Positions 3,990 through 33,224 of a stretch of DNA of 33,224 nt are shown here, piece after piece (the first letter of the stretch is position 1; the number at the start of each line of letters is the position of its first letter). A model generated the notes under the pieces. That model made no database searches and was not told where the DNA came from. It worked only from the letters and a program-made list of their open reading frames with translations. The DNA comes from Phoronis australis (lineage: Eukaryota; Animalia; Phoronida), in contig NMRA01000276.1 in NCBI GenBank assembly GCA_002633005.1, forward strand, positions 396,659 to 429,882, read 5' to 3'. The position numbers and the translations under genes are program-made.

Positions 3990-4258
3990 TCAGCACTTTT
4001 CTATGTCACAGTATTCCCAGGTCTTTTTCGATTTTGTTGTGTAGCACCATGGTCGTTGCCGTCGTAGATTGTATGGGTTCCTGCAGTAGTTATTTCCCAC
4101 GATTCCATTAATATGGTTGTCGATGGCTTTGGCAGAATAAACGGAATGTTGATGAGGATATTGTGAGTCCCATCTCTGACATGTGACGCCGCTGGCAGTG
4201 TAGTCTAACGTACCCCTGTAATCCCGACCGTCTGTGTACCGCAATAATTTGCAAGTTT
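3990..4258 (-). CDS. Astacin-CTL-kringle gene, last coding exon: kringle domain and stop
   Basis: Acceptor ttttttag at 4259-60, phase 1. Translates TCKLLRYTDGRDYRG..SGVTCQRWDSQYPHQH..NNYCRNP..RPWCYT..WEYCDIEKC*, with all six kringle cysteines. Confidence 0.93.
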
Positions 4259-4377
4259 CTAAAAAAGTAATTAAACTTTTAAGTTTAGAAGCTAAACAGA
4301 AACGTCAAAAAGGCTCGTTACCGGACCGAGTACTTGATTTGGGAAAACTAAGTCCGTATAATCATATTTTTTGAAAA

Positions 4378-4783
4378 GGATACTAAACCCTGCCCTGGTG
4401 ATTGAAACCAATCGTCGTTTTGTCACTTACTGATCCAGACATTGGCGTCAATCTTGCAGGAATTAGCTTTAGACTGGCAGATAAGATATGGTTCTTAGTG
4501 GGTGGTCTTTTCCCCGCAGTTGCCGTGCAATTCGCTTCAGTGGTCACGCTTGCCCGTTTTCCAGACTTTAAAATATAAAGGAGTTTTCAAATTTTCCTCC
4601 AAACTTTTCAGGATTATTGAGTGTTACAGAGGGTTATTTCGTTTCAGAGAGCTGGATGGGCCAGTTCTGTTAATAGGCCAAAACCGGGTTTGTTATGCCC
4701 TTTTAAAATTACACGCCAAATGCTGCGTTAGGAGGTGACAGAACGAGGAGTAGCGGAAATCATCAAAACAGGGTTTAGTATCC
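4378..4783. mobile_element. ~410-bp MITE with 15-bp terminal inverted repeats (Kolobok/T2-like), in the last intron
   Basis: GGATACTAAACCCTG (4378-4392) is the exact reverse complement of CAGGGTTTAGTATCC (4769-4783). TTAA lies at 4787-4790 and a degenerate TGAA on the left. The family assignment is inference. Confidence 0.7.
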
Positions 4784-4955
4784 ATTTTAAGCTTAAAAGA
4801 AAAAATGCAAAATCTAGTGGCAAACTGTATGGCATAGATGCACATGAATTGTTGTCGGCTTGAATCTCCTCATATCTTCTTGGGTAACCAGTTAGAAACA
4901 CAATATCAACTTATCTAAGTTTCTGCCGGAAGTATAGACGAGTACATGTACTTAC

Positions 4956-5183
4956 TATTGGCAACTTTTTCACAGATGAATGGAAAAGCGTATTGTGGTA
5001 TGTCCTTTACCGACCCTGCCCACGTCCCCTGCCAACGCAACCTGCCGTCTCTCATGTCCTTAGCAAGAACTAATGTGGTGTACTTGCCCGGCTGACCCGG
5101 CCCAAACCTGTGGTACCGCATCTGGCGGTGTCGACGGTCGCGATGGTGCCAAATCCAGACAGATCTGTCGTATCTTTTTCCTC
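4956..5183 (-). CDS. Astacin-CTL-kringle gene exon: C-terminal half of the C-type lectin-like domain
   Basis: Acceptor catacttag, donor gtaagta, phase 1-1, 228 bp. Translates GKRYDRSVWIW..YHRFGPGQPG..RWQG..FPFICEKVAN. Confidence 0.9.
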
Positions 5184-5745
5184 CTAAGTATGAAAAATAA
5201 TTATACGTGTAATGTGATCACGGTCGTGCTACCATTTGAACATGTTTAATCAGACTACATATGAAATTTGAACATGGTCAATAGGTGTCACTGGGAAGCG
5301 TCACTTCCTTTCCAAAGGACGTTTTGAGATAAAAACTCCTTGTCACTCACATTTTCCAGTGATTTATTCGTGCATGAAGTTGAAGCTACTTCCAGAATTG
5401 CTCATGCCCCTATAGGGGAAGCACTTGAGCTATTAGGAGCACTTTAACACTTAGGATGTGACTGCTGGGAACATAACGTTATTACCGTCCCGTCACGGTT
5501 AGGCAAAATGGTATGCATTTCTTCATTCAACATTAACTATGAGAGTTGGGTAAAGAATGGACAACAAAACAGACATGGCCAAATTTAAGAAATGCACATA
5601 TTCGTGGGATAGTCGCCTGCACCTATAAGCTAAAGCGTAGGCGCATCTACGCCTGTACTTACAAGCGAAGCGCATTTCGAACAAAGGCTCACATTGACCT
5701 TAATTCGTGCACACAAGTACAAACTACTCTTTGTTGTAACCATAC

Positions 5746-5940
5746 CTGTTCGCCATTCCGTTACTTCTGGGAATGTGTTTTCTAAGTAGTTTGTGAGGAA
5801 GGCGTCCTCCGTCGAATCATCAATGCTCACCAGTCTCGCGTTTTCACTGTGACATTCTTTACCAGCGCCTGCGAATTGTTTCGGCTTCAGCACAAACTTG
5901 TAGCAACTGTTCTCATTGCGCACCCAGCCTTCAGGACAGC
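5746..5940 (-). CDS. Astacin-CTL-kringle gene exon: N-terminal half of the C-type lectin-like domain
   Basis: Acceptor acgacag, donor gtatgg, phase 1-1, 195 bp. Translates CPEGWVRNENSCYKF..AGKECHSENARLVSIDDSTEDAFL..WRTG, a typical long-form CTLD start. Confidence 0.93.
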
Positions 5941-6535
5941 CTGTCGTGTAAAATACAAACAATTTCATACCTTGGTCATTCATCACGTTTCGCACGCGAA
6001 TGACGTCATAAAAAGTGTCTAATCCCTTTTGCCTAAACTATTGCTTCGATGGTGTGCCAGTCGTGCAACTAAACCACCTTGGTGACCCAACTAAAGCTGT
6101 TGCAAGGTTCTTGTTGATATTTTAATCTAAATAATAAGACCAGTTTACTTAGCAAAAAAATTTTTATTTCAAGCTGCGTTCAGTTCACCCTATCTAGTTG
6201 CATGAAAAGGAAAATTGAAGTAAACCTCCGTGACTGACATAAAATCGGTCACTAAATACTCTTTATATTGACAGGATACCATCAGCGATTAAAAAACCCT
6301 TTAGATCTTATTGGAATTAACCAACCCTAAAATTGAGGATACAGAATGCCTGTGATTTGACTTGCCGGTTTATTCGGCAATACCATGATTCAAGATTTAA
6401 TGGTAATGTTTTTAGACCCCAAAGCGCTTTGGTTAAAAATTCAGCAATGACATATAAAAGTAGCTGGGTAAAATGCATCATTCATAAAAAATGCTACATT
6501 GACGGATCGCCAATAAACAAGACAGACCATCTTAC

Positions 6536-6647
6536 CTTTGATTTGCTTGTTACAACGATACATATCGCGTAGCTGTGCAATGTCGAGTTCACTCAGTGCA
6601 ATGCGCTGACCAATGGAGAATTTCAATTTTTTACCAATTCCAATGAC
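6536..6647 (-). CDS. Astacin-CTL-kringle gene exon: end of the astacin domain
   Basis: Acceptor ttcaatag, donor gtaaga, phase 0-1, 112 bp. Translates VIGIGKKLKFSIGQRIALSELDIAQLRDMYRCNKQIK (GQR..LS..D....MY.C motif). Confidence 0.93.
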
Positions 6648-7173
6648 CTATTGAAAAACACGTAGTGTTAAGAGACATAGCGTCAGTTATGCAACGGGCA
6701 GCCCACACTATGACGTTAAACGCACATCAGTTTTTCTTTATTTTAGCAGAAGATATGTTTATTCAGGGTAAAACCTATTCACTTATACAACTGGAATCCA
6801 ATAGGGCCCTGATCAGAAAGAAAATATTAAAAATCAAGTTAACAAGACGATATAAGAAGAATTAATATATACAAAAAAACGTTAACAAAAATTTGACACA
6901 GATGAGTGAAATATTAGAATAAAATTAGACACATTATTATTATTTCTGAAAGAATCGTTACCGATACGTCTTGGAGCAAGATGTCCACAAACGCATGCTA
7001 TATATTTACTCGTTCGTCGCCTCCAACATGTTCGCGTACGGAATGACGTCACTTCTCTCACGCTCGTAAGTTTGTTATAATGTATTGTTGGGTACATCAC
7101 AGTCCGTAAATGATATCACAGATGCGACAGACATGTTTATGGCATCAGGACCGCTACATCACGTCTAACGTAC

Positions 7174-7356
7174 CTCGATCGTAGGTTCCCCGTTTGTAGA
7201 GAAATAATCACTAGCATAGTGCATGATACTGGAGTAGTCGTATGGATATCCTCGGGAGTTCTGAAGTTTCTTGGTGAGCTTTTCAAAGTTAACTCTTGTT
7301 AAAGGAGAGATGTTCCTTTTGATTATGTTGACGTATCGGTCTCTATCTCGTCGGCT
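7174..7356 (-). CDS. Astacin-CTL-kringle gene exon: Met-turn region (not in the ORF track)
   Basis: Acceptor gttctcag, donor gtacgt, phase 0-0, 183 bp. Translates SRRDRDRYVNII..NF..GYPYDYSSIMHYASDYFSTNGEPTIE, with the SxMHY Met-turn. Confidence 0.94.
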
Positions 7357-7765
7357 CTGAGAACAAGATTTTATAATTTCACAATATGTGTAGCAATGGG
7401 CGATGGAACTGGTGTGTATTTAATATAAAGTTGTGCTGCAATAAGTATGAGGAAGTTTTAATAACATCAAACCAACTTGAACCCATGTGCTTACTTAAAA
7501 CCCAGCATACTAAGTCTAAAGTAAGTATTTGAATAGTATGGCTACTGCGGCAATATCATGTACAATGGAGTATCCAGAAATTTTCAACAAGGGGTCGAAC
7601 GCGACATTGTTGCCTTGGCGAGCGGCAACCCGCGTGGCCCTTGTTCCAATAACATTAGAAGACCAGCGCCCATGGCTCTTGTGATCTTGCAACTCGTTTA
7701 AAGAAGACAAAAACTGGACAATGCACTTTTCCATTCGTATTTCAATGCGAAGTGCTCAGTTTTAC

Positions 7766-7886
7766 CTGTTCGTGCCAAAATCCCAGAGCGTGGACCGTCT
7801 CGTGAACAACAGTACCAAACTTGTCGCAGCCGTAACCAAGGGCGATTCTCTGTGCACCTTTTTGAACGCCTATATACGACCAGCAT
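7766..7886 (-). CDS. Astacin-CTL-kringle gene exon: zinc-binding motif
   Basis: Acceptor ctgagtag, donor gtaaaa, phase 2-0, 121 bp. Translates CWSYIG..GCDKFGTVVHETVHALGFWHEQ, matching HExxHxxGxxHE. Confidence 0.95.
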
Positions 7887-8267
7887 CTACTCAGAACAAA
7901 CACAAAAATCAACGTTATTACCATTCAAGATTTCGAATATGGTGAACAGTTTGTTGTGCTTCGCCATAAAGCCTCTTACAAAAGTTCGATGTAATAACGG
8001 ATGGATGGATGGACGTTTACAACAAGCATTTTAATTCTGACGTTACAAGGTGTTGAAGTAATGTCATCTGTTGCACTCCACATTTCGCTATAAACACTTA
8101 GTTGACATTTCCTCTGTAATACCTCTCTGCAGTCATAGGCGCCATGAAGACCAAGACCCGAGGTAGGCCTACAATCTTTGTACTCGAAATCGAACATTTT
8201 GCACACTTTCGTGTGAAAGGAAAGTGTCTTATCATTCTGTTCTCTAGTATGTTACGGTAAATGCTGA

Positions 8268-9153
8268 TGAATTCGTTGAAAACGATACGACAATGATTAC
8301 TGGACACTACTTTTTCTTGTGTTTTTCGTATTGTCTGAAAACAATCCTTGTGTGCCGATCCCTGGTGTATAGCTTTGTAGTAGCTCCCCGAGCGTCATAC
8401 TGAGAAGAACAAACGATAGAAAATTGTTTTAAAAATTATATTAGACCGCAGTACTTCGAATGGATACTACATTCATCGAAGGCAAGAAATACAATGAGAC
8501 CTCGGTGAGTAGTGAGACATCATAGTAAAGGTCATGAGATAACAAACCATTCACGACATATCAAAAGGATTCTTGGCATAGCAGGTGTTCAAACAGAGTC
8601 TATAGTGCAATGACCAGCCAGTGAGCACAGCAGGTGGGACTAATTGAACGGGTTTCTCCATCAATATAATTAATGACTTAAGTAATAACAATCTATGTTT
8701 GTATTTATCTATATATCTGACAATAGTCTTATCCTCTTACTCTTTCCCCGACTCTCTTCTATGATGCACAGACTCAAAATGGTGGATAACACCATTTTGT
8801 GAGTGATAGGACAACCTGCGCGAAAGTGATCAGTCTGGCCAACACAACACTGAATAGGCAGAATGAAGACATTCATTCTCAGGGCATGTAAATTGGTAGA
8901 CAACGCTACATTTGCTTAAGATTCGTTCTGGCCTTTTACTCAAGCTGTTCTTTATGACAAGGCTATGAGTTTTAATATTCTGGTAATACACAATTATTTT
9001 TACCCTATCACCTGCTTTGTAAACAGCAACAACATGGCGTATCATTATCTTAATGACTTTCACAGTGCGATCCGCACACAAGGAGTATTTTTAGACAATA
9101 CGAAAAATGCGTAAAGAAGTCCAGTAATCATTGTCAACGTTTTTAACGAACTC
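8268..9153. repeat. Pair of ~90-bp diverged inverted repeats (8268-8360 and 9069-9153) in an intron
   Basis: The reverse complement of the left arm aligns with the right arm through GCACACAAGGA, AGACAATACGAAAAA, GTCCAGTAATCATTGTC and AACGAA. Confidence 0.8.
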
Positions 9154-9502
9154 TGCGCCAGAGGGGACTGTTGCCGAGTTATATTAATGTTGACGAGTGT
9201 CTATTCCAAGTTCGCACTTGGTGACCTTATATTCGAGCTACAATCTCGAGTAAAAACTCAAAATTTCCAGTAAAAAGTAAAAACTCGAACTTATAACCTT
9301 AATGCGTCATCAAGTGCAACTAGTTTGGGATATACAACTATCCACAAAAAACACTTGTCTTGGAGAAAACAAAAATGTCAAAAACAGTTTCGAGTTCGAT
9401 TTCGAGTAGAAAGATTACCCGGCAGACTAAATGATTATTCGCCTTACTATGTGATTTCTCCCCAAAGTGAGAAATGTTACGCGTCCATAAAGCCAAACTT
9501 AC

Positions 9503-9623
9503 CCTGGTTCATTCACGTAATAGACATAATTCGTGTCATCTTCCGTTGCCGGTCTGAATCTGACGCAGGTTTCTCTCATTATGTGTTCGTGGGCTCGCCG
9601 AATATGTTTCTTGACCTTTGAAG
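9503..9623 (-). CDS. Astacin-CTL-kringle gene exon: TCVRF region, copy A
   Basis: Acceptor tataaag, donor gtaagt, phase 1-2, 121 bp. Translates SKVKKHIRRAHEHIMRETCVRFRPATEDDTNYVYYVNEPG and joins both neighbouring exons in frame. Confidence 0.88.
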
Positions 9624-10555
9624 CTTTATATAGAACGGAAATGGTGGAGTATTAGCAACTGTTGGCCAAGATACACATAATGCAACAAGACACACATGTC
9701 AAGCACTTGTCCTTCTTCATGACATCCTAAATCTGATGTTATTCACAATTTCAATGCGGACAAATTTGTATTATTGTACGTTTGTCACCAAAGAATTGGC
9801 AAATATCAGTGTTGGGTGGACAATATATTGTTCTTGCGTGGAAATATGTCAGTCACGCAATTTATTTTATAACTCCGCAAAAGAGAAGAGTTAAATCCAG
9901 GATGCACCTGTTGTACATCTCTTGGAGCAGTCGTATGACCTAGTCGTGTAGCTTCAGCGACACTGGGGTCGTCCTAATACGTCATTCCAGGGCACAACTA
10001 TACTGAACAGCGTGCAGTTTGAACAGTTCAAATAAGTGCATTTCTTATTGATGTTTTTTAAATTGTTTATTCCATAGCTACAGAATGAAGCACACTGCAG
10101 CGTTCCTGACTCTATACATGCCGGTGACCACAGCCGCATAAAACTTACGGACCTCAAGTTGTCGTGGGCCGAGTGACCCGGGTAGGGATGACGAAGGTAT
10201 CGATTTTGAAGATGGCCAATGATGATCATGGGGGCGCAGTAGTGATTATGACGACGATGATGGGATGCCCAACATGACTATCAGAATGTCGATGACGTTG
10301 TCGCTGTTGACGACGATGTTAGTGATGATGACGACGATGTTAGTGATGATGACGACNACTAGTTTGGGATATACAGCTATCCACAAAAAACACTTGTCTT
10401 GAATTCGTGCAAAAGGAGAAAACAAAAATGTCAAAAACAGTTTCGAGTTCGATTTCGAGTAGAAAGATTACCCGGCAGACTAAATAATTATTCGCCTTAC
10501 CATGTGATTTCTCCCCAAAGTGAGAAATGTTACGCGTCCATAAAGCCAAACTTAC

Positions 10556-10676
10556 CCTGGTTCATTCACGTAATAGACATAATTCGTGTCATCTTCCGTT
10601 GCCGGTGTGAATCTGACGCAGGTTTCTCTCATTATGTGTTCGTGGGCTCGCCGAATATGTTTCTTGACCTTTGAAG
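10556..10676 (-). CDS. Second copy of the TCVRF exon (R to T variant), probably the other allele
   Basis: Same splice sites as copy A, offset by 1053 bp. Reads TCVRFTPATEDD. Confidence 0.6.
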
Positions 10677-11359
10677 CTTTATATAGAACGGAAATGGTGG
10701 AGTATTAACAACTGTTGGCCAAGATACACATAATGCAACAAGACACACATGTCAAGCACTTGTCCTTCTTCATGACATCCTAAATCAGATGTTATTCACA
10801 ATTTCAATGCGGACAAATTTGTATTATTGTACGTTTGACACCAAAGAATTGGCAAATATCAGTGTTGGGTGGACAATATATTGTTCTTGCGTGGAAATAT
10901 GTCAGTCACGCAATTTATTTTATAACTCCGCAAAAGAGAAGAGTTAAATCCAGGATGCACCTGTTGTACATCTCTTGGTGCAGTCGTATGACCTAGTCGT
11001 GTAGCTTCAGCGACACTGGGGTCGTCCTAATACGTCATTCCAGGGCACAACTATACTGAACAGCGTGCAGTTTGAACAGTTCAAATAAGTGCATTTCTTA
11101 TTGATGCTTTTTAAATTGTTTATTCCATAGCTACAGAATGAAGCACACTGCAGCGTTCCTGACTCTATACATGCCGGTGACCACAGCCGCATAAAACTTA
11201 CGGACCTCAAGTTGTCGTGGGCCGAGTGACCCGGGTAGGGATGACGAAGGTATCGATTTTGAAGATGGCCAATGATGATCATGGGGGCGCAGTAGTGATT
11301 ATGACGACGATGATGGGATGCCTAACATGACTATCAGAATGTCGATGACGTTGCCGCTG

Positions 11360-11470
11360 TTGACGACGATGTTAGTGATGATGACGATGTTAGTGATGAC
11401 GGCGACGATGTTAGTGATGATGACGACGATGTTAGTGATGATGACGACGACGTTAGTGATGATGACGACA
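11360..11470. repeat. 21-bp GAC/GAT-rich minisatellite, ~5 copies (partial copy at 10310-10356)
   Basis: Unit GACGACGATGTTAGTGATGAT. Confidence 0.88.
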
Positions 11471-11569
11471 ACGTCGACTGTTGATAATGTGGTGGCGTTT
11501 GCACCGATGACGGTTGCGTGCCGACGAGGAAAAAGCCTGTAAACGATGACATGTTAGGCCCGCCTATAG

Positions 11570-11940
11570 TTGTTTGACTATGATATAATAGGCTTAAATA
11601 GCTGAGTAGCGATGATATTATAGGTCTATCGGTGTGACGGGCAAAGAGCTGTGTGGCGATGATATCATAGGCCTATATCTGAGTGGCGTTGATATCATAG
11701 TCATATCTGTGTGTGAAGGGCCTATGGCTGTGTGGCGATGATATCATAGGACTATATCTGAGTGACGTTGATATCATAGTCATATCTGTGTGTGAAGGGC
11801 CTATGGCTGTGTGACAATAATATCATAGGCCTATAGCTGAATGAGAGGCGTTGATAGCATAGGCTTTTCTGTGTGACGGACCAATAGCTGGGTGGCGATG
11901 ATATCACAGGATGATATACATATGCCTGTCTGTGTGGCAT
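11570..11940. repeat. Degenerate minisatellite (~20-30-bp subunits) with a 79-bp higher-order unit
   Basis: GCTGTGTG(G/A)C starts at 11648, 11727 and 11806. The subunit core is ATGATATCATAGGCCTAT. Confidence 0.85.
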
Positions 11941-11966
11941 TTTGATCGTTATGAAAATAAACCTAC

Positions 11967-12141
11967 TCAGTTCAGAATCAATTTTGAATGGCACAATCCC
12001 ATTTGGCCACAACATCGTAACTCCTCGAACTGCCGCACGTTTATCCCTCCTCCTTTGGCGAGTTCTTGACGATCGCTCACGGCGAGCTTCCTTTAATGCC
12101 CTCGTCTGTCTCTCTCCTAGGACTATGTCTCCCTCAAAAAA
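11967..12141 (-). CDS. Astacin-CTL-kringle gene exon: pro-peptide and start of the mature protease
   Basis: Acceptor ccctttcag, donor gtaggt, phase 0-1, 175 bp. Translates FFEGDIVL (astacin aspartate-switch FxGDI), a furin-type RDKR/AA site, then LWPNGIVPFKI. Confidence 0.92.
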
Positions 12142-14024
12142 CTGAAAGGGGACAGGTTCTGCAGCTGAAAAATAAATACGAAATTGATGCTTTAACTAAA
12201 CTGAATAATCTCAACTCAGGTATTCGGTATTATCAGTTGACAAAACACGCAACAAACATAAACAACAATTAAAGTTATTTCCATCTTACTTAGCTGGCTA
12301 TAAACGAATATCGAATCAGACCTTTTAATCACAACATCGACCTCGCAATATTTCTTACAGGGGGAAGACGCCGTGGTAATGTGTTCTTGGTTACACCAAT
12401 GGTATTTCATTTCCATTACCAACCCAAGTCACAGGTAATCCGTCTATGCGCCATTTTTGAATTCGTAATTTTAGGGTCTGTCAACCTCAACACTCGTCCA
12501 GTTTTTCGAGTCGTTTATGGTTTTGATGTTCTTGTTGGTATTGGTAAGGAGTATTATGAGACATTTTTGATGAGAGTAAAAGGCCAAATTATACTCAGGG
12601 CATATACAGTTTTAAATAACACTACGTCAAAAAATCGCGTTCCTTCTTGATTTGGTTTAAAATTGACAAGATTTGTGGTCAACAGTTCTTCTTACAGCTA
12701 ACCGTAAAACAAGACTAATGTTATACAGATGTTTATTCTTTCCGAAACGTTTTTAGAATCAGCTTCGGCTTCTCGGTACATGACGTAGATAGAATTTCCG
12801 AATCAACAAGTTGGATGTAACTTGATGCAGTTTGTATTTAGAGATATACCTTTTGCACACGTTTCAAGTCTACGGTTTTATTTTAGATACAGTCAACATT
12901 TACTAAAACCATACATTTTTTAAGATGCGTCTCAGTAGCAACGCGTCAACAGGTCTTATTGTCTAACATGAGCCGGTAAAGTTGGATAGCTCATGGTTAT
13001 GTCTCATATTAACCGAAGTGGAAGACACGACACAAACATTTGATCGTACAGAAAAAGTTTAGGAAGGTGTTAGGGAGTCCTAAAATGAACATTTTTCAGC
13101 AGCAAATTTCCGTCTAAGGAGCGAACTTTTGATTTAAACCGCTTGTCGCTGTAAAATTAGTCTCAGTTTATTCCTTGCACAGATGAAATGTTTTCTGGAT
13201 TTGTAAGGAACTAACAGTTAGGGGCATGCTCAGCGTGTAAAATGACACGCCGGAATATACTTGAAGAGCTTGGTCTCGACCAATTGACCATCTGTCCAGT
13301 CTTTTGAAGTCATAAAATCAATTCCAATTTGAATAAGGAAATTTTTCAGACCAATTTCATTACCGTAAATCGGCTGAATAAAAATTTTGTTTTTGTGATG
13401 GAAAGAGGGTTAATTGTCCCTGCTGTTGTGTTCAGTGTAACCCTGGTTGTTGCCAGTTCACTCGCCAACAAAACACAAGCAGTTAAACAACCGCGATTGC
13501 TATTGTGAGGAAGTCCGTGTAAGAATTTTTTTGATGCTGCGAATACGACTGTCCCTGTAGAAACCATTGGAACGGGGTTTTGTGGTTGTAAGTCATATAT
13601 TCGGAAATAGTATTTTTAACCTTTTGTTCTAACCCAAATATGATCCTTGGCGCACTTTCGGGAACAGAAATTCTGTCACAGAAATTGGCTGGAAGTGAGG
13701 ATCAATATGTATTGAGGAGTTGACCAATATGTATTGTTAAGATAGTTTATGGTATTAATGGTACCGTTAGTTAATAACTAAACTAACTCATAAAGTCAAG
13801 TCTTGTTTTTGTTTGACACTTGTGGTCACAGTTACCATAGAAGTTCTAAAAACTGCAGACATTTTTAATTGCTGTTCCAAAAGTACGTCGGCCCATAGCT
13901 GCAAATATTTCCGAATATTGGGCCTATGGGCCAAAATGTATGGGGTAGCTGTGAAAATCCCTTGTATCAGTTATCTCTTCCTGCTTGTATTGATATTAAG
14001 GTTATGAAGGACAAGTCTGTGTAT

Positions 14025-14671
14025 TCAGTAAATCACCCAAAATACAAGCTTTAACCAAGGAGTGTAGTAGTACACTCCTTGCTTTAACTCAGTAAATCAC
14101 CCAAAATACAAGCTTTAACCAAGGAGTGTAGTAGTACACTCCTTGCTTTAACTCAGTAAATCACCCAAAATACAAGCTTTAACCAAGGAGTGTAGTAGTA
14201 CACTCCTTGCTTTAACTCAGTAAATCACCCAAAATACAAGCTTTAACCAAGGAGTGTAGTAGTACACTCCTTGCTTTAACTCAGTAAATCACCCAAAATA
14301 CAAGCTTTAACCAAGGAGTGTAGTAGTACACTCCTTGCTTTAACTCAGTAAATCACCCAAAATACAAGCTTTAACCAAGGAGTGTAGTAGTACACTCCTT
14401 GCTTTAACTCAGTAAATCACCCAAAATACAAGCTTTAACCAAGGAGTGTAGTAGTACACTCCTTGCTTTAACTCAGTAAATCACCCAAAATACAAGCTTT
14501 AACCAAGGAGTGTAGTAGTACACTCCTTGCTTTAACTCAGTAAATCTCCCAAATTACAAGCTTTAACCAAGGAGTGTAGTAGTACACTCCTTGCTTTAAC
14601 TCAGTAAATCACCCAAATTACAAGCTTTAACCAAGGAGTGTAGTAGTACACTCCTTGCTTTAACTCAGTAA
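14025..14671. repeat. 64-bp tandem array, 10 near-identical copies, each with a perfect 11-bp-stem hairpin
   Basis: Unit TCAGTAAATCACCCAAAATACAAGCTTTAACCAAGGAGTGTAGTAGTACACTCCTTGCTTTAAC starts at 14025+64n. Only copies 9 and 10 vary. Confidence 0.97.
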
Positions 14672-24484: not shown

Positions 24485-27400
24485 CTAAAATTTGAAATAA
24501 TGAGTTGTTTTTTGAAACGCTGTTTGTCTATTGGTTATGGGTGCCTCTGTTGAATGTTGCTCAATAATTTTAAAATCTTCAGAGATACCACCATCGTTCG
24601 ATGAAAAAAAGTCAGCATTGCGATTATCAACACTCTTGCCTAAGTTATGCCTTCCCATTTTCTTCAATTCGGCACGGCTTAAATACACCGTACCCTCTTT
24701 TCTTGGCCTGCTTATAACGGTTTGAAGTTCCTGAAGAAATTCTTTTGAACGTCGAGGCGACGCCGCGGAAAGGTCTAATTCGTCTTTTCCAGGAGACACC
24801 GGAAAGGTTTTTAAGTCAACCTGCTGATAATTGGAATCAATGTAAACCTCTCCTGCCCCGACACGAGGTGGTGAAGCACCTTTATACTCAAGACAATGTT
24901 GAGCCAATGCTTGATGTTCTGGCCGCATTGCATGTGTGGATTGCGAGTTCGAAGGTCCTTGAGGCAGTGGGCGGGGGCTGTTTTGTGTTTGAGGAGGATC
25001 ACCGTCGCTCTCAAATACCCAATTATCTCTTGTTAGCGGATGTTGCTGAAGGGCGTACGATGTCTCCGACAGAGAGCGCCTCGTTTTGGATCGTAAAATG
25101 ATGTCATCAAGTTCATGAAGGACATCTTCAACTTGTTCTTCCACGCTGACTGCGCGCGTCATAAGATCTCTCTTCTGTTGGATCATTCTTTGATTGTGTT
25201 GTCGCAGGTGTTCTAGTGATACTGTTGGATCAACCAGGTCACTAACGTCACGCCTGATCACGTGGGGATTTTCTGACGCCAAGCGATTATTTTTATCGTA
25301 CTTCGGAGGTCTTTCTGCAGACTTGCTTCGTACCCGGGCAGTACTTGGCGATATCTCTCGCCCATTTCTCTGGCCAGCTCTTTTTTCGCCGATGCTCTGA
25401 TGTCGTTGACGATCGTGTTGAACGTTGTCTCTTAGGGCAAAACTACCCATCACGGGACTGGCAAGAAGCTGCGTCATGTCTAAAACTTGTTGTCTAGCTT
25501 TGTTATCCTTCTCGCGTGATGAGAGAGCAACTGTTCTACCATGCAAATTTCTCATCTTTTCCATATCCGCATGCAAAGACCTGCCTCTAACCGACAGGGC
25601 TGGTGGTTTATTAGTTTTCTGCTTCTTTTCGCGTGTGAAGGGTTTATTTTCCAAAAAGACCATTGTTGGCGACGGAGTACTTGGAGTCGATGCTTCTAAG
25701 TTCCTGTACGTGTCTTCAAATTCAGTCCAAACATCTGAATTCGGATTGCAGATTGCACTGCCTACAGTGTGAAGTGACTGTTGTACACCATCTGCCTCTC
25801 GGTCATTATACTGTCTAATATTCCTAACGTCAAATCTCTCTTGCGCAGTCGAATATGCTGAGTTCGCTTGTTTTGCTTTGAAGTCAAATGTGGCGACATC
25901 ATTAGGCGACATCTGACGTGTCATGATCACCTTCGATTCCATTACTTCAGCTTTCATGTTGAACGACCGTCGTTTGCCAAGAAGTTCTTCTAATACCTGG
26001 GCTTCTTTTAACTCTTGTGTACGGACGTGTGATGACTGTCCCCTTTTAGGAGGTACCGGAGACTTGGGTCTATTGAGTGTCCGCTTCTCTTCGTTTGCTG
26101 GTCTTGGTGACACAACTGGACTTGGGACACTTGAGATATCCGACTCTTTGGATTTGAAGTTAGATTTATCTTGATCACTTAAATATAAAAGCGGCTTTAC
26201 ATTTGCAGTGGGGCTGATTAAGTTGTCTATTGCCTTGTTTTGGATGTATTCAAAAGTTTTTATGTGTGAATCCATTCCCCGTTTAGGTGGTTTTGGTGCA
26301 TGCGGCGACCGCAAAGGGGACAAAGGCGAATTTTTTGTTACTCTTTCTCCATCGTTCAATGATTCTTTCGAACCGTGAAACACTGACTTAGATAATTCAG
26401 GAACAGGTGACGGGNAACTGGACTTGGGACACTTGAGATATCCGACTCTTTGGATTTGAAGTTAGATTTATCTTGATCACTTAAATATAAAAGCGGCTTT
26501 ACATTTGCAGTGGGACTGATTAAGTTGTCTATTGCCTTGTTTTGGATGTATTCAAAAGTTTTTATGTGTGAATCCATTCCCCGTTTAGGTGGTTTTGGTG
26601 CATGCGGCGACCGCAAAGGGGACAAAGGCGAATTTTTTGTTACTCTTTCTCCATCGTTCAATGATTCTTTCGAACCGTGAAACACTGACTTAGATAATTC
26701 AGGAACAGGTGACGGGACGCACAATATGTCCATTTCACCATCAATGGCTTTAGCCCGCACCACCGGCGCCAGCAACAAATCGTTAGTACTAAATGCTGCG
26801 CAAGTTTTATTCAAGGGCTCGTTGAAATGCGTTGGTCGGCTGAAAACACCGTCAAGAGACGATGTTTCAGTATCATCAACTTTACTCACGTGATTAGAAT
26901 TTGCGGACATGTCTTCATTGACACGCGAATGCACCAAGGCGTCACTCAAAGCCAATCCCTTGTCATTTGAAGTCGGTGATTCCGGCATTTCAGAAGCCAA
27001 GTTTTGGAAATCTTTTCCCGGTCCCACATAGCGTGGCGATTTTCGTTTACCTCTGTTGGTATCGTAACCAGTATCAGCATTCTGGAATTTATGCAAACCA
27101 CCTGTTATAGAACTAGGTCTGGAATTTTCGCCTCCAGGCACGCGGTTAGTTGGCTCGTTTTGCAAGCCAGCATCTGCAATGATGTTTTCTGGAGTCAAAC
27201 TGACCACAGATTCTGTCACAACTTTAAACGACTCCGGTCGCGCATCGACCTGCTTTATTGGTGGTTTAAATATTATCTTTCGCCACGCGATATTGTGTGA
27301 TTTTTCTTTCTGCTCATTTCTTCGTGGTTCGTTCTGTTCACATGGCAACGGTTTGAACGGCTTTGGTTTGGCGAGAAATTGTTGATTAGACTGAGGACCA

Positions 27401-30400
27401 GCCTTTGGAACACCGTCTGAAAAATCCGCAATTGGAACTAGCCCACTAGTTTGGGCGGCAGACGGCATTGCGTGCAGTTTCTCGTTCACCACTTTTAACT
27501 GATTAATGCAGTCCTCAATTTTTGTATCGGGTTTTGCAAACTCCATGAAATCTGTACCAACAGATTTATCAAACAGCAACACCGAGTTACTTCCCGAGCC
27601 AGTTGAAGTCAACACGGGCGTCGTTTCTGAGAAACTTGTCGAAGTACCTTTATTGATCTTCATGATGACGGTTTTCAAACACTCTTTTCGTGTTTGCAGA
27701 CGAACAAATGTTGGTGTCGACGTAGACCTGTCCGTTTTGATGCTCTCGTCTGTAAGTGTTGCACTGTTCCGCGTTGTTATAGCTATGGTACACGTGTTTT
27801 GATCCCTTATGTCCACATTACACGTTTGAGAGCACTTCGTGTCCTTGTGGGGCTTTTTTATGTTTGAAGCGGATTGAGAAACATAATTGATATGTGAAGC
27901 TCTAGTTTGATTAACTGATATTGATTTGGCGCTGGTAGTACCTGCAGCGTCAGCGGTGACTTTACTTTTCATCACCACAGTTTGCGGCGTCTGTGAAGAA
28001 GAACTGTTCTCAGTTACATTACCTGTGGTTAGTGTTGTTGCCCCCTTTGACGCCAGGGTTTCATGAGTTGTGCTGACTGGCTCAGATTTATCCCCAGGCA
28101 GAGGTTCCTCCGTGTTGGTTTCCGCATGACTGAGTGACTTTTGTGTTGTCATAGTACTTTTAGTTCTCGCTGCTCGATCTGGTGCGTTTATAAATGCAGT
28201 AAGTCGTTTTAAAGAAATTGTTCTGGGAGTCATGGTTTGCTTGTCAACCATTAAGCGGAATACATCTTTGGTTGACGCTCGAATCGATGCCGATACATCA
28301 TTCATAATACGTGTAGATGTTCCCATTTCCGATTTGCTTACAATAGGGGGCGCAGGTGTGGATGTTGCACTGTCGGTCATAACAACGTTGCATGTCGTTT
28401 CAGTGGACGTGTCAGCAACGCCGATTTTCTCAGTCGCAATAGCTATGTCGAAAACGTCGGTTTTGTCTTTAACTACAACATTTTCATTGGTGCTTATGGC
28501 GACATCAGCCGTTGTTACAGTCGTCATACTGGTTGAATTATCGACACGTGTCGGCATTTCTACATGCGTGGCGGCATTTAGAACATCTGGCGATGCGTAA
28601 ACAATTCGGTGGCACATGACAATTGGGTCCATCTCTGTATGGGCGTTTTGCAAAGTTGCGTAGTCCGTTGAGGTGCATTGAGTTTGAGTTTCGTTTTTTG
28701 TAGTTTCGATTGACACGTCAATCGTGTATGGTGGATCCGTTGCCACGGCAACATCGTCATAACTTATCGCCGCCATCGACGTAGCACTTTCGACAGTTTT
28801 TACGCTAGATGTCTCGGTCATATTTGTATTGGTTTTTGTAAATAGAGGGTCGCAGCCACTGTCTGTCATGGTTAAATACGTTTCTGTGGCAACGTGGCTA
28901 TAAAGTACTGGGGGCATAAAAGTCTCTGAATCTGCAGTCTCAACAACTATTGTTTCTGTTGACTGATGACTTGTGTGTTGTGGTATGGGGTCATTACCGG
29001 AATTGGTTGCGGATACACGATCAGTTTCTAAGCCAACAGAACTCGATTGTATTTTAGGCATACTTGTACCGCATTCTGACGTGTTCAGAGTACTGGTTCC
29101 TGCCTCCTGGTCAACTGTTTCGCACTTGACAGTCACACCTATATCTGACGTCCTAACAACTGGCTCTGACTCAGTTTCCACACTAGCGTTCAATGTTTGA
29201 AGATAGTCAGTGTTTGTTTCGTTCTCCACTGTATCTTGCAAGCCACTCTGTATAGTTTCGCAAGCCTGGTCGCTGGTTTTGCTTGGTATTGTCGCAGTCT
29301 CATGGTCTGCATAAGTTACTAGTTTCGTCGCAGTGCCGAAATCTCTCGTCGTCATGTGCGTCATGGTCTCTACACTATTTACTTCTGTCGCATTCGTACC
29401 CGTATGAATGTGTCTCACTTCCGGTTGAGACATAATGCCAATGTCAACAGATGCACTGGAGTGATCAGTTGCCGTCCCAATGTCAATCACTTCCTGTGCG
29501 TCCGTTGTAGTTCCCTGAGAATCTGTCACAACAGTTTTTGTACTTGTTGCTGCGTCACGACATTCAACCCCATCAGTCATAAATCCAGCGTCACGTGAGT
29601 CCATTATGGACGTCATGGTGGTTTCCACTGTTGCTTGTTCACAGCGGACAGAAACTCCGATATTTCTCGTTTGTATTTCATCCATAGATGTACTCGCATT
29701 TTTTCTGAATAACAACAAATCAACCAGAGTTCCTTTTTCTACCATCTCTGTCTTGGGAGTTTGGCTCATATCTGGATTTGTACCAAAGTCAATGGTAGAA
29801 ATAAAGGTAAAAGTGTGTTTTTCCTTGGTTTCAACTTTATCTGTCATAGTGTGTGTATCTCTGTGTACACAAGGTTGCACTTTTGTTTGAGTGTCAATCG
29901 TTTGCTGATGTGGTTTGCATGCAACTTCCACGTCAGCTGTACGTCTCTTTTCGGTTTGAGTGATAGCTGTTCCTGTCTCCATAGCATCGGTTTCAATAGA
30001 TGCGTTTTTTACAGAAGGTGGCTCTGTCATGTTCGATCTATTTTCGCATTTTCTCGCGTCTGTGTTTGTTTCGCTGTCTACAGTTCTATACAGGCGCACC
30101 TGGATATTTTTCTCCGTGAGACCAGTAATCAAATCACAGTTCATCGTGGTTGTCGCATCTGACGTGGTCGCCATTTCTGTCTGCACCTCCTTTGTAAATT
30201 GAAGTTGCCGTAGGTGTTCGTAAACATCCCAGTCGTCAGGCGTATTAACGTCATCACCACCACTTCCAACAGCCAAATCACCAAAATTTAGTGTTCCGTG
30301 CATAAATCGAACCCGCCTATTTAAATTTTCGGGTACTTCCATAAACTCCTTTTCAAGCAACTGTTTAAGTTTCTCCTCAATCTCTCTGTGGAGTAGAATC

Positions 30401-31338
30401 AGTTCTATCCCTTTGTCATTTATCATCATTTCTGTCAAGTTTGTTGTTTTCTCTAAATTTTCAAGAACATCCTGTAAATCTGATTTATTATTGAGATACT
30501 CCAAAGTCTCCGTTCCAAATATTTCTTTCACTTCCTCCACAAGTTGCTGCTCACGAGTTCTAATCACAGCATTAAATGCTGTGGATAGATCGTGAATCTG
30601 TCCCTCAGCGTCTTTCATATTGTTCTCGCAATTCATGATCATGTCAAGTTTTCCCTTCAAATTTTGAAGTTTATCACGACTCCGTTCTACCAAATTTTCG
30701 AGAGTCATCTTGTTTTTGTTAATACCCTCAGTGAAAGACGATACCTCGTGATCTTTATGCGCCTGAAAAGTGCAGACGACACAAATACACATTTGACACG
30801 GCTCACAGTAATATCGCACCGTCTCCTCGTCGTGCTCTTTACACACTACATCCCTTTCCGCATTCATATCGTACAGGTCGTGATTTTGCGTGACTTTAGT
30901 CTTCTTATGCCGCTCAACACAATTCTCGCATAACAGTTTGTTACAGTCTAAGCATTTTGACACGGCCATCCCATGTTTTCTGCCATTATTGTTGTCTCCG
31001 GCTGGGATGCAGATTTCGCACAACGGACCGCCTGAACTGGATGTTTTACTAAGAATAACATCAGTTAGGCTACTTAGCAGAAAGTTATCGGGTAATTTTC
31101 GCACGCCGCCGGTTGGTAAATCTGTTTTTCGACGACAAATCGGACAAGAAACAGTCCTGGTATATATACTATAACGATAGGACGTCCGCTCTTGTTCTGC
31201 GTTCATGTGTTTATCAATGCACTCCATACAGAAGGTATGCATACAGACGAGAGTCTTTGGCTTCTTAAGGATCTCAAAACAGATCTTACACAGCAAGAAC
31301 TGCTCGTTAATTTCATCCATCAATTTGCCACTAGCCAT
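24485..31338 (-). CDS. TRIM/RBCC E3 ubiquitin ligase-like protein (RING, two B-boxes, coiled coil) with a long Thr-rich repeat region and disordered tail; 2183 aa after removing the 302-bp duplication plus N
   Basis: C3HC4 RING at C17, C20, C32, H34, C37, C40, C65, C68; B-box1 (CEIC..CLDC..CENC..H..H); B-box2 (CKEH..CEPC..CVVC..H..H); heptad-rich helix. An in-frame TAA lies 3 codons upstream of the ATG. The 1660-aa and 632-aa ORFs overlap with identical peptide across the duplication, and 6854-302 = 6552 nt = 2184 codons. Confidence 0.9.
26114..26716. repeat. 301-bp tandem duplication joined by a single N at 26415 (probable assembly artefact, causes an apparent frameshift)
   Basis: Copy A is 26114-26414 and copy B is 26416-26716. 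One synonymous difference was seen (Ser AGC/AGT). Confidence 0.93.
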
Positions 31339-31981
31339 GACTGTTTACTTAGTTTTGCTCACTAAAATTGAGTTAATAATATCACGTGACACCGTATAAC
31401 CCGCTGAAAGAATATGCCGTCAGTTCGTCTTTTTCGAATTAGCCCTCCAAGCAGCAGACCTTTAGCGCTTGCCAAGTTCATATCTTTTTGAAAATGCGTT
31501 TGCAACTGTCTGCCCAGCAGATGTATGTTCACTGGGTTACGCAGAGTTACAACAACGTCATCGTGTTACACAAATCGCTCGTTGAATCTGCTTACAATCG
31601 AGGTTTCGCCTCTGGCAACCTCCAGTCATCACCCGTTGTTTTACCAGATGGTAATTACTCAGTCTACTTGTAAATCCCGACAGTCTCACGTAATCAGTTT
31701 GGAAACATGTTGCAACGTTGTTTCCGTGGCCCAAGTACCGATTGAAGCGCCAGGGGGACCATCGCGTTTGACCTCCAACTGCTGTTGAAGCACATGCGAA
31801 CAGAGAGCACTCTGAAAAATAAAAATTAGGTGCGGGAAATTGAATTTAACTCAAAACATGGAACAGAAGTGTTCGAAGAGTAAGTCAAGGTTGTGTAGAC
31901 CTTGTTGAAAAGTCTGTGCATTCTACAAAACTATAAAATTTAACTCAGCAAAAGTATACATTTTCTGGAAGTACACATTCC

Positions 31982-32952: not shown

Positions 32953-33224
32953 AATGTCACTTGACCTGTAGGCCTACCGCAATACAATGTCACTTGACCT
33001 GTAGGCCTACCGCAATACAATGTCACTTGACCTGTAGGCCTACTGCAATACAATGTCACTTGACCTGTAGGCCTACCGCAATACAATGTCACTTGACCTG
33101 TAGGCCTACTGCAATACAATGTCACTTGACCTGTAGGCCTACCGCAATACAATGTCACTTGACCTGTAGGCCTACCGCAATACAATGTCACTTGACCTGT
33201 AGGCCTACCGCAATACAATGTCAC
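32953..33224. repeat. 33-bp minisatellite, at least 8.2 copies, running off the window end
   Basis: Unit AATGTCACTTGACCTGTAGGCCTAC(C/T)GCAATAC, containing the palindrome GTAGGCCTAC. Confidence 0.96.

Follow-up and report, generated by a model that had tools for sequence, protein, structure and literature searches.

Gene model and TRIM head

The window, a stretch of 33,224 nucleotides from Phoronis australis (contig NMRA01000276.1), carries on its minus strand an open reading frame that starts at an ATG at 31338, directly preceded by an in-frame stop, and whose predicted product is about 2183 aa long when one copy of a duplication at an assembly gap is left out (Table 1). At this gap, a single N at 26415 is flanked by two 301-bp copies with one base difference between them, and duplications of the same kind flank the two remaining Ns in the window (10357 and 20183). 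With one 301-bp copy discounted, 2183 stop-free codons are obtained, reaching 24485. Based on the duplicate copies, the RNA data and the frame that stays open after discounting, the duplication is probably a contig-overlap artefact producing a false frameshift and stop, and the protein probably continues beyond the apparent stop at 26356.

The gene is transcribed. Among the RNA runs with the same species label (X2, X3 and X4; X1 is not recorded as RNA), X2 and X3 gave low, one-sided depth over approximately 23.2-31.8 kb, with one empty bin in X3, and their first mates map to the plus strand, which fits minus-strand RNA in usual libraries. Run X4 gave almost zero depth on the ORF. No splice joints were listed within the ORF in these runs; given their low depth, support for the single coding exon comes mainly from the open frame.

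Table 1 Features of the TRIM gene in the window
Feature	Positions	Strand	Basis or remark
CDS part 1, aa 1-1641	26416..31338	-	ATG to assembly gap; stranded RNA depth
CDS part 2, aa 1642-2183 and stop	24485..26113	-	In frame with part 1 after discounting 301 bp and the N
301-bp duplication around the single N at 26415	26114..26716		Probable contig-overlap artefact
C3HC4 RING, aa 17-68	31135..31290	-	Pfam PF00097, E 1.2e-07, 31.9 bits against a cut-off of 21
B-box 1, about aa 106-154	30877..31023	-	PF22586, E 5e-05, under the curated cut-off
B-box 2, aa 165-201	30736..30846	-	PF00643, E 3.5e-09
Coiled coil and linker helices, aa 202-329	30352..30735	-	AlphaFold2 long helices, pLDDT mostly 70-95
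59 LC8-type motifs, aa 381-1263, period mostly 12 aa	27550..30198	-	Profile and spacing-aware count
Unbroken tract of 14 motifs, aa 533-696	29251..29742	-	Spacing-aware count
Unbroken tract of 18 motifs, aa 742-951	28486..29115	-	Spacing-aware count
Ser/Thr-rich motif-free gap, aa 1078-1165	27844..28107	-	Candidate hinge; hinge role inferred
Amphipathic helix, aa 1272-1289	27472..27525	-	Conserved, heptad-spaced hydrophobics, directly behind the last motif
Ser/Pro/Lys/Arg-rich tail, aa 1290-2183	24488..27471	-	Poorly conserved

By RING, B-box and coiled-coil tests the protein is a TRIM (RBCC) protein, and a predicted ubiquitin ligase. All eight zinc ligands of the RING are present, and the closest solved RINGs are those of TRIM3, TRIM2 and TRIM56. 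PF00643 reports two B-box stretches (37.1 bits against a cut-off of 24.1), and the Cys and His residues of B-box 1 are invariant among 24 sequences. By analogy with TRIM20 and TRIM25, the coiled coil would form the antiparallel TRIM dimer. A Pfam search of the query detected no filamin, NHL, SPRY or any other Pfam domain behind the coiled coil, the tail had no Pfam or NCBIfam match above cut-off, and neither ORF part had a Pfam match to a KN motif or ankyrin repeats. The protein is neither a TRIM-NHL nor a KANK protein. Its closing helix (aa 1272-1289), which is built by AlphaFold2, is a candidate second dimerising helix. Candidate dimerising elements are found on both sides of the motif array, the TRIM coiled coil before it and the conserved helix after it, and both may dimerise the chains.

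A hidden 12-residue repeat and its spread

A preliminary description of this DNA had proposed a TRIM ligase with about 55-60 regularly spaced motifs after the coiled coil, and had counted by hand about 54 of them up to position 28108, with several more down to 27550. Our count of 59 sites, in a protein with Pfam RING and B-box matches, bears this out: the first motif begins at nucleotide 30198, the last ends at 27550, and 53 of the 59 lie above 28108. The 14 motifs given there as examples, compared by eye, all fall on scored sites (anchors at aa 386, 425, 449, 461, 484, 599, 611, 623, 670, 709, 866, 1036, 1075 and 1261). The consensus used in that description gave 30 sites against 4.6 in shuffles, a test set aside as circular, and was replaced by a 10-column profile seeded on T-x-T and trained solely on the middle regions of 23 homologues. 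In these homologues T-x-T is the strongest short-range residue pair, and the strongest pair overall is Thr-Thr at a distance of 12.

The comparison with shuffled sequence that had been suggested was run with this profile. At 5 bits, 43 sites were found in the query versus 4.8 ± 2.1 in 300 global shuffles (maximum 12), 5.2 in local shuffles, 8 in the reversed sequence, none in residues 1281-1641 and one in the RBCC part; at 2 bits, 53 sites were found versus 15.6 in shuffles. The spacing-aware count, whose spacing bonus was set after the family spacing data had been seen, gave 59 sites versus 8.8 ± 3.0 in 200 shuffles (maximum 17). Spacings are exactly 12 aa in 35 of 58 cases and 11-13 aa in 45 of 58, matching the period of 11-13 aa read by hand. 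The array is segmented into the tracts of 14 and 18 sites and shorter ones, with one spacing of 96 aa, and Thr and Ser together make up 29% of its residues. As had been noticed, the repeat is hidden at the DNA level: Tandem Repeats Finder (TRF) lists no repeat within 27550-30195, and third-codon-position identity between motifs is 0.27.

Searched with the RBCC part, 4016 candidates yielded 23 long proteins of 44-52% identity, and 104 representatives were retrieved at E ≤ 1e-30. A profile of the closing helix matched 45 of 166 proteins at E < 1e-3, every one of them array-bearing. These 45 members, 21 of which are outside the profile training set, contain 9-70 sites (median 40), with at least 30 sites in 41 of them, indicating that no single array length is conserved. 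The pitch is kept in homologues, a check that had also been proposed: over 24 proteins, 23 of which formed the training set, 537 of 1036 spacings are exactly 12 aa. Site density is 1814 in 56399 residues in the long clade versus 16 in 9429 residues in 34 outgroup TRIMs, although motif counts over the family are not independent, the homologues being related.

Long members were found in Octopus, Mya, Dreissena, Mercenaria, Lymnaea, Littorina, Babylonia, Nucella, Lineus, Tubulanus (857 aa, without a helix match), Lingula, Paralvinella and Watersipora, so that the array clade spans annelid, mollusc, nemertean, brachiopod and bryozoan members, a list that rests on names looked up for 30 clusters. 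Short-tailed members come from Priapulus, Solemya, Watersipora, Seison, Pomphorhynchus and Fasciolopsis, and proteins of Macrostomum and Adineta, outside the tree, are of the same type. A quick tree was built from 98 of the 166 rows, after the 68 with RBCC matches shorter than 280 aa had been left out. In it, the long clade comprises 46 rows (SH-aLRT 99) within a family of 64 (SH-aLRT 99), and the query groups openly with an annelid protein. The other 18 family rows are short-tailed, are not resolved as a single clade, and carry 0-7 irregularly spaced sites each (47 in 3838 residues). The nearest outgroup TRIMs are mostly NHL-bearing, a profile of six short tails matches the NHL regions of outgroup TRIMs (E down to 8e-05), and some short relatives retain a degenerate NHL-like tail, suggesting that the family descended from TRIM-NHL proteins.

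The pattern of the array is conserved and its linear sequence is not. Used alone as query, the array had no match at E ≤ 0.01 in 7990 scored candidates, orthologues included, and none in Pfam, NCBIfam, plasmid or phage proteins, or the ESM Atlas; its one match to PDB sequences (E 0.84) is a chance one. These empty searches show low sensitivity rather than novelty. Several array homologues are labelled 'serine-rich adhesin-like' in annotation. With arrays missed by sequence search and labelled in this way, further ones have probably been overlooked.

Likeness to LC8 sites and competing readings

According to the accessible text of PMC6607443, LC8 sites have a polar residue or Asp and never a large hydrophobic one at -4, a large or basic residue at -3, a non-aromatic one at -2, Thr or a branched residue in the buried positions -1 and +1, Asp, Glu or Pro at +2, a clearly preferred Gln at 0, and no internal Pro. 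The homologue-trained profile, into which nothing about LC8 entered except the T-x-T seed, agrees with these rules at six positions out of seven: -4 has Asp (40%), Glu (18%), Ser (15%) and Asn (11%), together 84%; Lys (26%) and Arg (16%) make up 42% at -3; Gly, Ser, Ala and Glu stand at -2; Thr (59%), Val (18%) and Ile (7%) make up 84% at -1; Thr reaches 74% at +1; and Asp, Glu and Pro combine to 45% at +2. In the 50 query sites compared, position -4 is free of hydrophobics larger than Ala, -2 of aromatics, and -1 and +1 of charges, absences that are partly built into the profile. The query is weaker than the family at -3, where 11 of 50 sites have Lys or Arg and 14 a small residue, and Pro occupies +1, a position buried in LC8 complexes (PMC6607443), in about 11% of family sites.

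The anchor at position 0 is the exception. The preliminary description had likened the motifs to LC8 sites and had noted that most copies lack the anchor Gln; the likeness holds at the six flanking positions and does not extend to a canonical TQT anchor, since Gln is found in only 5 of 59 query sites. Glu, which occurs in 10 of 59, is absent from the LC8 anchors (Gln, Asn, Met, Ser and Gly) reported in the available portion of PMC12057147. Taken together, these five residues anchor 1007 of 1797 long-clade sites (56% versus a background of 27%). When the anchor column was masked, 22 of 47 sites in the 18 short-tailed relatives had Gln at 0, where the background is 6%. Of the long members, 23 of 45 have Gln in their first site, and Gln anchors 52 of 183 sites of the first decile versus 1 of 339 sites of the two middle deciles (fifth and sixth). 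The motifs of the array thus look like LC8 sites, an identification supported by their residue pattern, and binding itself is predicted.

The motifs could instead dock another modular partner, for example readers of phosphorylated Thr, or be phosphorylation sites, or the whole region could be an unbound disordered spacer. The pThr-x-x-Asp pattern is a Thr-phosphate-type site, and Thr at -1 with Asp at +2 resembles it; Ser/Thr-Pro at 0/+1 in about 11% of family sites is a possible kinase site, and the Thr and Ser content of the array also fits. However, Asp stands at +2 in just 16 of 50 query sites, and this reading leaves the Asp at -4, the Lys or Arg at -3, the Gln or Asn anchors of the relatives and the exact 12-aa pitch unexplained, so that we consider it unlikely. 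A passive spacer would not retain the pattern while sequence similarity is lost.

It is similarly improbable that the repeats self-fold or stack, without LC8, as a beta-helix, beta-roll or cross-beta fibre with a Thr ladder. The strict 12-aa period, T-x-T, small residues at -2, Asp or Asn at -4 and the beta-branched residues that the repeat also has at -8 and -6 would suit such a fold, and T-x-T solenoids, whose coils are 12 aa long, are known in ice-binding and ice-nucleating proteins. A self-folding beta-solenoid had been named as an outcome to check for, and AlphaFold2 does not predict that the array folds by itself: with 24 sequences, aa 378-1272 have pLDDT under 50 and no secondary structure, which places the motifs in a predicted disordered region, and a piece covering aa 790-1010 (221 aa, 43 sequences) reached a pTM of 0.16 with no DSSP elements, both alignments being shallow and uncertain in register. 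These predictions are moderate evidence against a solenoid. In addition, prolines, which concentrate at the linker positions of the repeat, reach 8-15% at four to five positions per repeat; the short relatives carry isolated Gln-bearing copies, too few for a solenoid; and searches of low sensitivity yielded no match in plasmid or phage proteins, NCBIfam or solved structures.

A third alternative accepts LC8 but not a rod: with partial, heterogeneous binding, the array would sense or buffer LC8 in the manner of ASCIZ, and thereby tune the ligase in its dimer state, its turnover or its condensation. The weak anchors, the copy number varying from 9 to 70 and the few, irregularly spaced sites of the short relatives are in line with this, as is the report that ASCIZ senses LC8 through unsaturated complexes (PMC10046861, in the part available). 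Saturating 59 sites per dimer demands much LC8, which is a point against the ladder. On the other hand, the preprint on KANK1 (bioRxiv 10.1101/2025.07.16.665182), as far as its accessible text goes, reports that uniform weak sites with 3-4 aa linkers give homogeneous saturated rods and associates mixed linker lengths with ASCIZ-type heterogeneity, while 45 of 58 spacings in the present array are 11-13 aa. We therefore judge a sensor or buffer to have little chance of being the main role.

A predicted LC8 ladder and known systems

The reading that we favour, and hold to be rather likely, is that the motifs bind LC8 dimers cooperatively, which would zip the two chains of the predicted TRIM dimer into a rod with joints and a T shape. 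Structures of TRIM dimers show an antiparallel arrangement in which the B-boxes lie about 170 Å from each other and the C-terminal domains close to the two-fold axis (PMC4864278 and PMC4455283, in the parts accessible). If the coiled coil forms this usual dimer, both tails would exit side by side near the axis, and the TRIM geometry would provide the side-by-side tails that a parallel ladder needs. The Gln-anchored sites adjoining the coiled coil could nucleate LC8 binding, and the weak Ser-, Asn-, Met-, Gly- or Glu-anchored sites behind them would fill cooperatively, because the linkers are merely about 4 residues long; the helix at 1272-1289 might clamp the chains in register at their far end. 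With KANK1 as the yardstick (15 dimers in about 53 nm, so about 3.5 nm for each), stiff segments of approximately 50 and 64 nm would be expected from the two long tracts, and a length of up to about 200 nm from the whole array. The disordered tails, probably the substrate or anchoring end, would be held off the RING crossbar at a distance set by LC8 supply.

This mechanism departs from the one first suggested, a stiff LC8-zipped ladder of about 200 nm with the RING at a fixed distance from the tail. The length may be kept as an upper value, but the array is broken into tracts, so that a jointed rod is likelier than a single stiff one; an antiparallel dimer with its C-terminal parts near the two-fold axis would also put the RINGs at the ends of the crossbar and not at the rod tip. 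A complex prediction with four LC8 chains and two copies of aa 592-629 scored 0.33, 0.16 and 0.10 against a mark of 0.34, which was calibrated on cases without peptides or disordered chains and was used with no folded controls alongside; we give this result no weight on either side of the binding question.

A bolder extension, which we offer as possible but more doubtful than the favoured reading, is that an ancient lophotrochozoan TRIM subclass has given up its NHL propeller for an LC8 ladder larger than any yet seen, with 30-70 dimers on each ligase dimer. This ladder, which would nucleate at the coiled coil and have the terminal helix as its clamp, would act as a switchable ruler of 100-250 nm that sets the reach of the ligase; through tail motifs of the SxIP type, the ligase of some molluscs may also be tethered to the plus ends of microtubules.

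In titles and the beginnings of abstracts, mostly of non-subscription literature, we found no LC8 array on a TRIM, no TRIM-LC8 link and no account of this TRIM subclass, in agreement with the earlier remark that no TRIM subclass with such a C-terminus was known. The array, counted in predicted sites, is about four times the largest verified LC8 array that we found in print (KANK1, approximately 15 sites). The 30-70 regular weak sites over at least five phyla form a natural series in which motif strength, linker length and copy number can be related to cooperativity and rod length; the series includes short Gln-anchored paralogues, and Watersipora has short and long members in the same species. 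The subclass would be a further C-terminal class among TRIM proteins, and LC8 supply, if binding is true, would be a structural regulator of a ubiquitin ligase.

Compared with known systems, the head is that of TRIM2, TRIM3 and TRIM56, with a RING, two B-boxes and a coiled coil, and its best solved matches are TRIM3 (E 2e-28) and TRIM2. The TRIM-NHL proteins (TRIM2/3/32/71) differ in having an NHL propeller with or without a filamin domain, where the query has the array, the helix and a long tail instead. ASCIZ/ATMIN and Nup159 share with the query multivalent LC8-type motifs in a disordered region. In the accessible sections of the sources, human ASCIZ is given 11 LC8 sites (PMC10046861) and yeast Nup159 five (discussion of bioRxiv 10.1101/2025.07.16.665182; PMC10046861). 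Their motifs are mostly strong and Gln-anchored, and the linkers of ASCIZ are irregular, whereas the present array is, in predicted sites, five to twelve times larger, regular and weak.

The closest parallel is the L2 region of KANK1, consistent with the earlier mention of similar degenerate repeats in the KANK central region. As the available text of the preprint (bioRxiv 10.1101/2025.07.16.665182) describes it, L2 follows a coiled coil, has weak, mostly non-Gln sites with 3-4 aa linkers and binds about 15 LC8 dimers cooperatively, even though single peptides show no measurable LC8 binding; the rod that results has a hinge, measures about 53 nm in its extended form and is seen by EM mostly as a closed hairpin. 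L2 therefore provides an experimental precedent for weak, non-Gln, cooperative sites. Both proteins have a long disordered region after a coiled coil with weak non-Gln motifs in tracts split by a hinge (a candidate one in the query), and an 8-aa motif with a 4-aa linker gives the 12-aa pitch seen here. They differ in scale, with about 15 dimers over approximately 250-300 aa established by experiment in KANK1 versus about 59 predicted sites over 880 aa, and in context, as the present array is attached to a TRIM RBCC head with a RING and lacks a KN motif and ankyrin repeats. By this analogy, the array would act like KANK1 L2 if LC8 binds, and a KANK1-like cooperative ladder is the best reading of the locus.

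Transcript structure of the query gene and its surroundings

A pyrimidine tract followed by AG lies on the minus strand upstream of the query, the TRIM-family ORF carrying the LC8-type array. This tract may be the acceptor of a 5'-UTR intron, and, if it is real, the whole query CDS would lie within one terminal exon of ~8.6 kb. No splice joint supporting this acceptor is listed from the RNA runs. Within the motif-free gap of the array, an in-frame 3-base insertion was found in all covering reads of two of the three RNA runs carrying the same species label (3/3 of X2 and 2/2 of X3).

The exons of a neighbouring gene span 3990-12195 of the window on the minus strand. Its ORF at the upper end of this span had no match in Pfam; it resembles the beginning of an astacin protease. 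The duplications flanking two single Ns are probably contig-overlap artefacts of the same kind as that at 26415 in the query ORF. The two tandem arrays are young, with 98-99% matches among copies.

Features of the window
Feature	Position	Strand	Details
Kringle exon, neighbouring gene	3990-4304	minus	PF00051, E 1.5e-24
C-type-lectin-like piece, neighbouring gene exon	5630-6037	minus	
ORF, neighbouring gene	11752-12195	minus	
Single N	10357		flanking tandem duplication, about 1052 bp
Single N	20183		flanking tandem duplication, about 430 bp
Tandem array	14025-14671		64 bp x 10.1 copies
Tandem array	32953-33224		33 bp x 8.2 copies
Pyrimidine tract + AG	31812-31824	minus	
3-base insertion in reads	28064		

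Tails of homologues and short-tailed relatives

Ser-[Arg/Lys]-[Ile/Leu]-Pro motifs, which are similar to EB-binding SxIP sites, occur in homologue tails in basic, serine-rich surroundings. With the pattern picked after the sequences had been seen, 25 matches were found in 16 of 44 homologue tails (P0006, P0007, P0020-P0024, P0027, P0029, P0031, P0032, P0034, P0035, P0038, P0041 and P0056), against 4.1 ± 2.3 in shuffles; the query tail contains none.

A C-terminal segment of ~85 aa, similar to part of an NHL propeller, is kept in the short-tailed relatives P0043, P0055, P0060, P0062, P0066, P0074, P0078, P0157 and P0198. Those scanned with Pfam gave no NHL match, and from its sequence the segment is possibly a degenerate or mini-propeller domain. 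Two paralogues, one short and the other long, occur in Watersipora subatra (P0049 and P0118), suggesting that the pair is the product of an old duplication.

Proline at position +1 in long members

In the motif-array proteins P0003, P0004, P0005, P0008, P0009 and P0025, 6-13 sites each carry Pro at +1, often preceded by Ser. These may be proline-directed kinase sites inside the array. The +1 Pro violates the LC8 motif rule at these sites.
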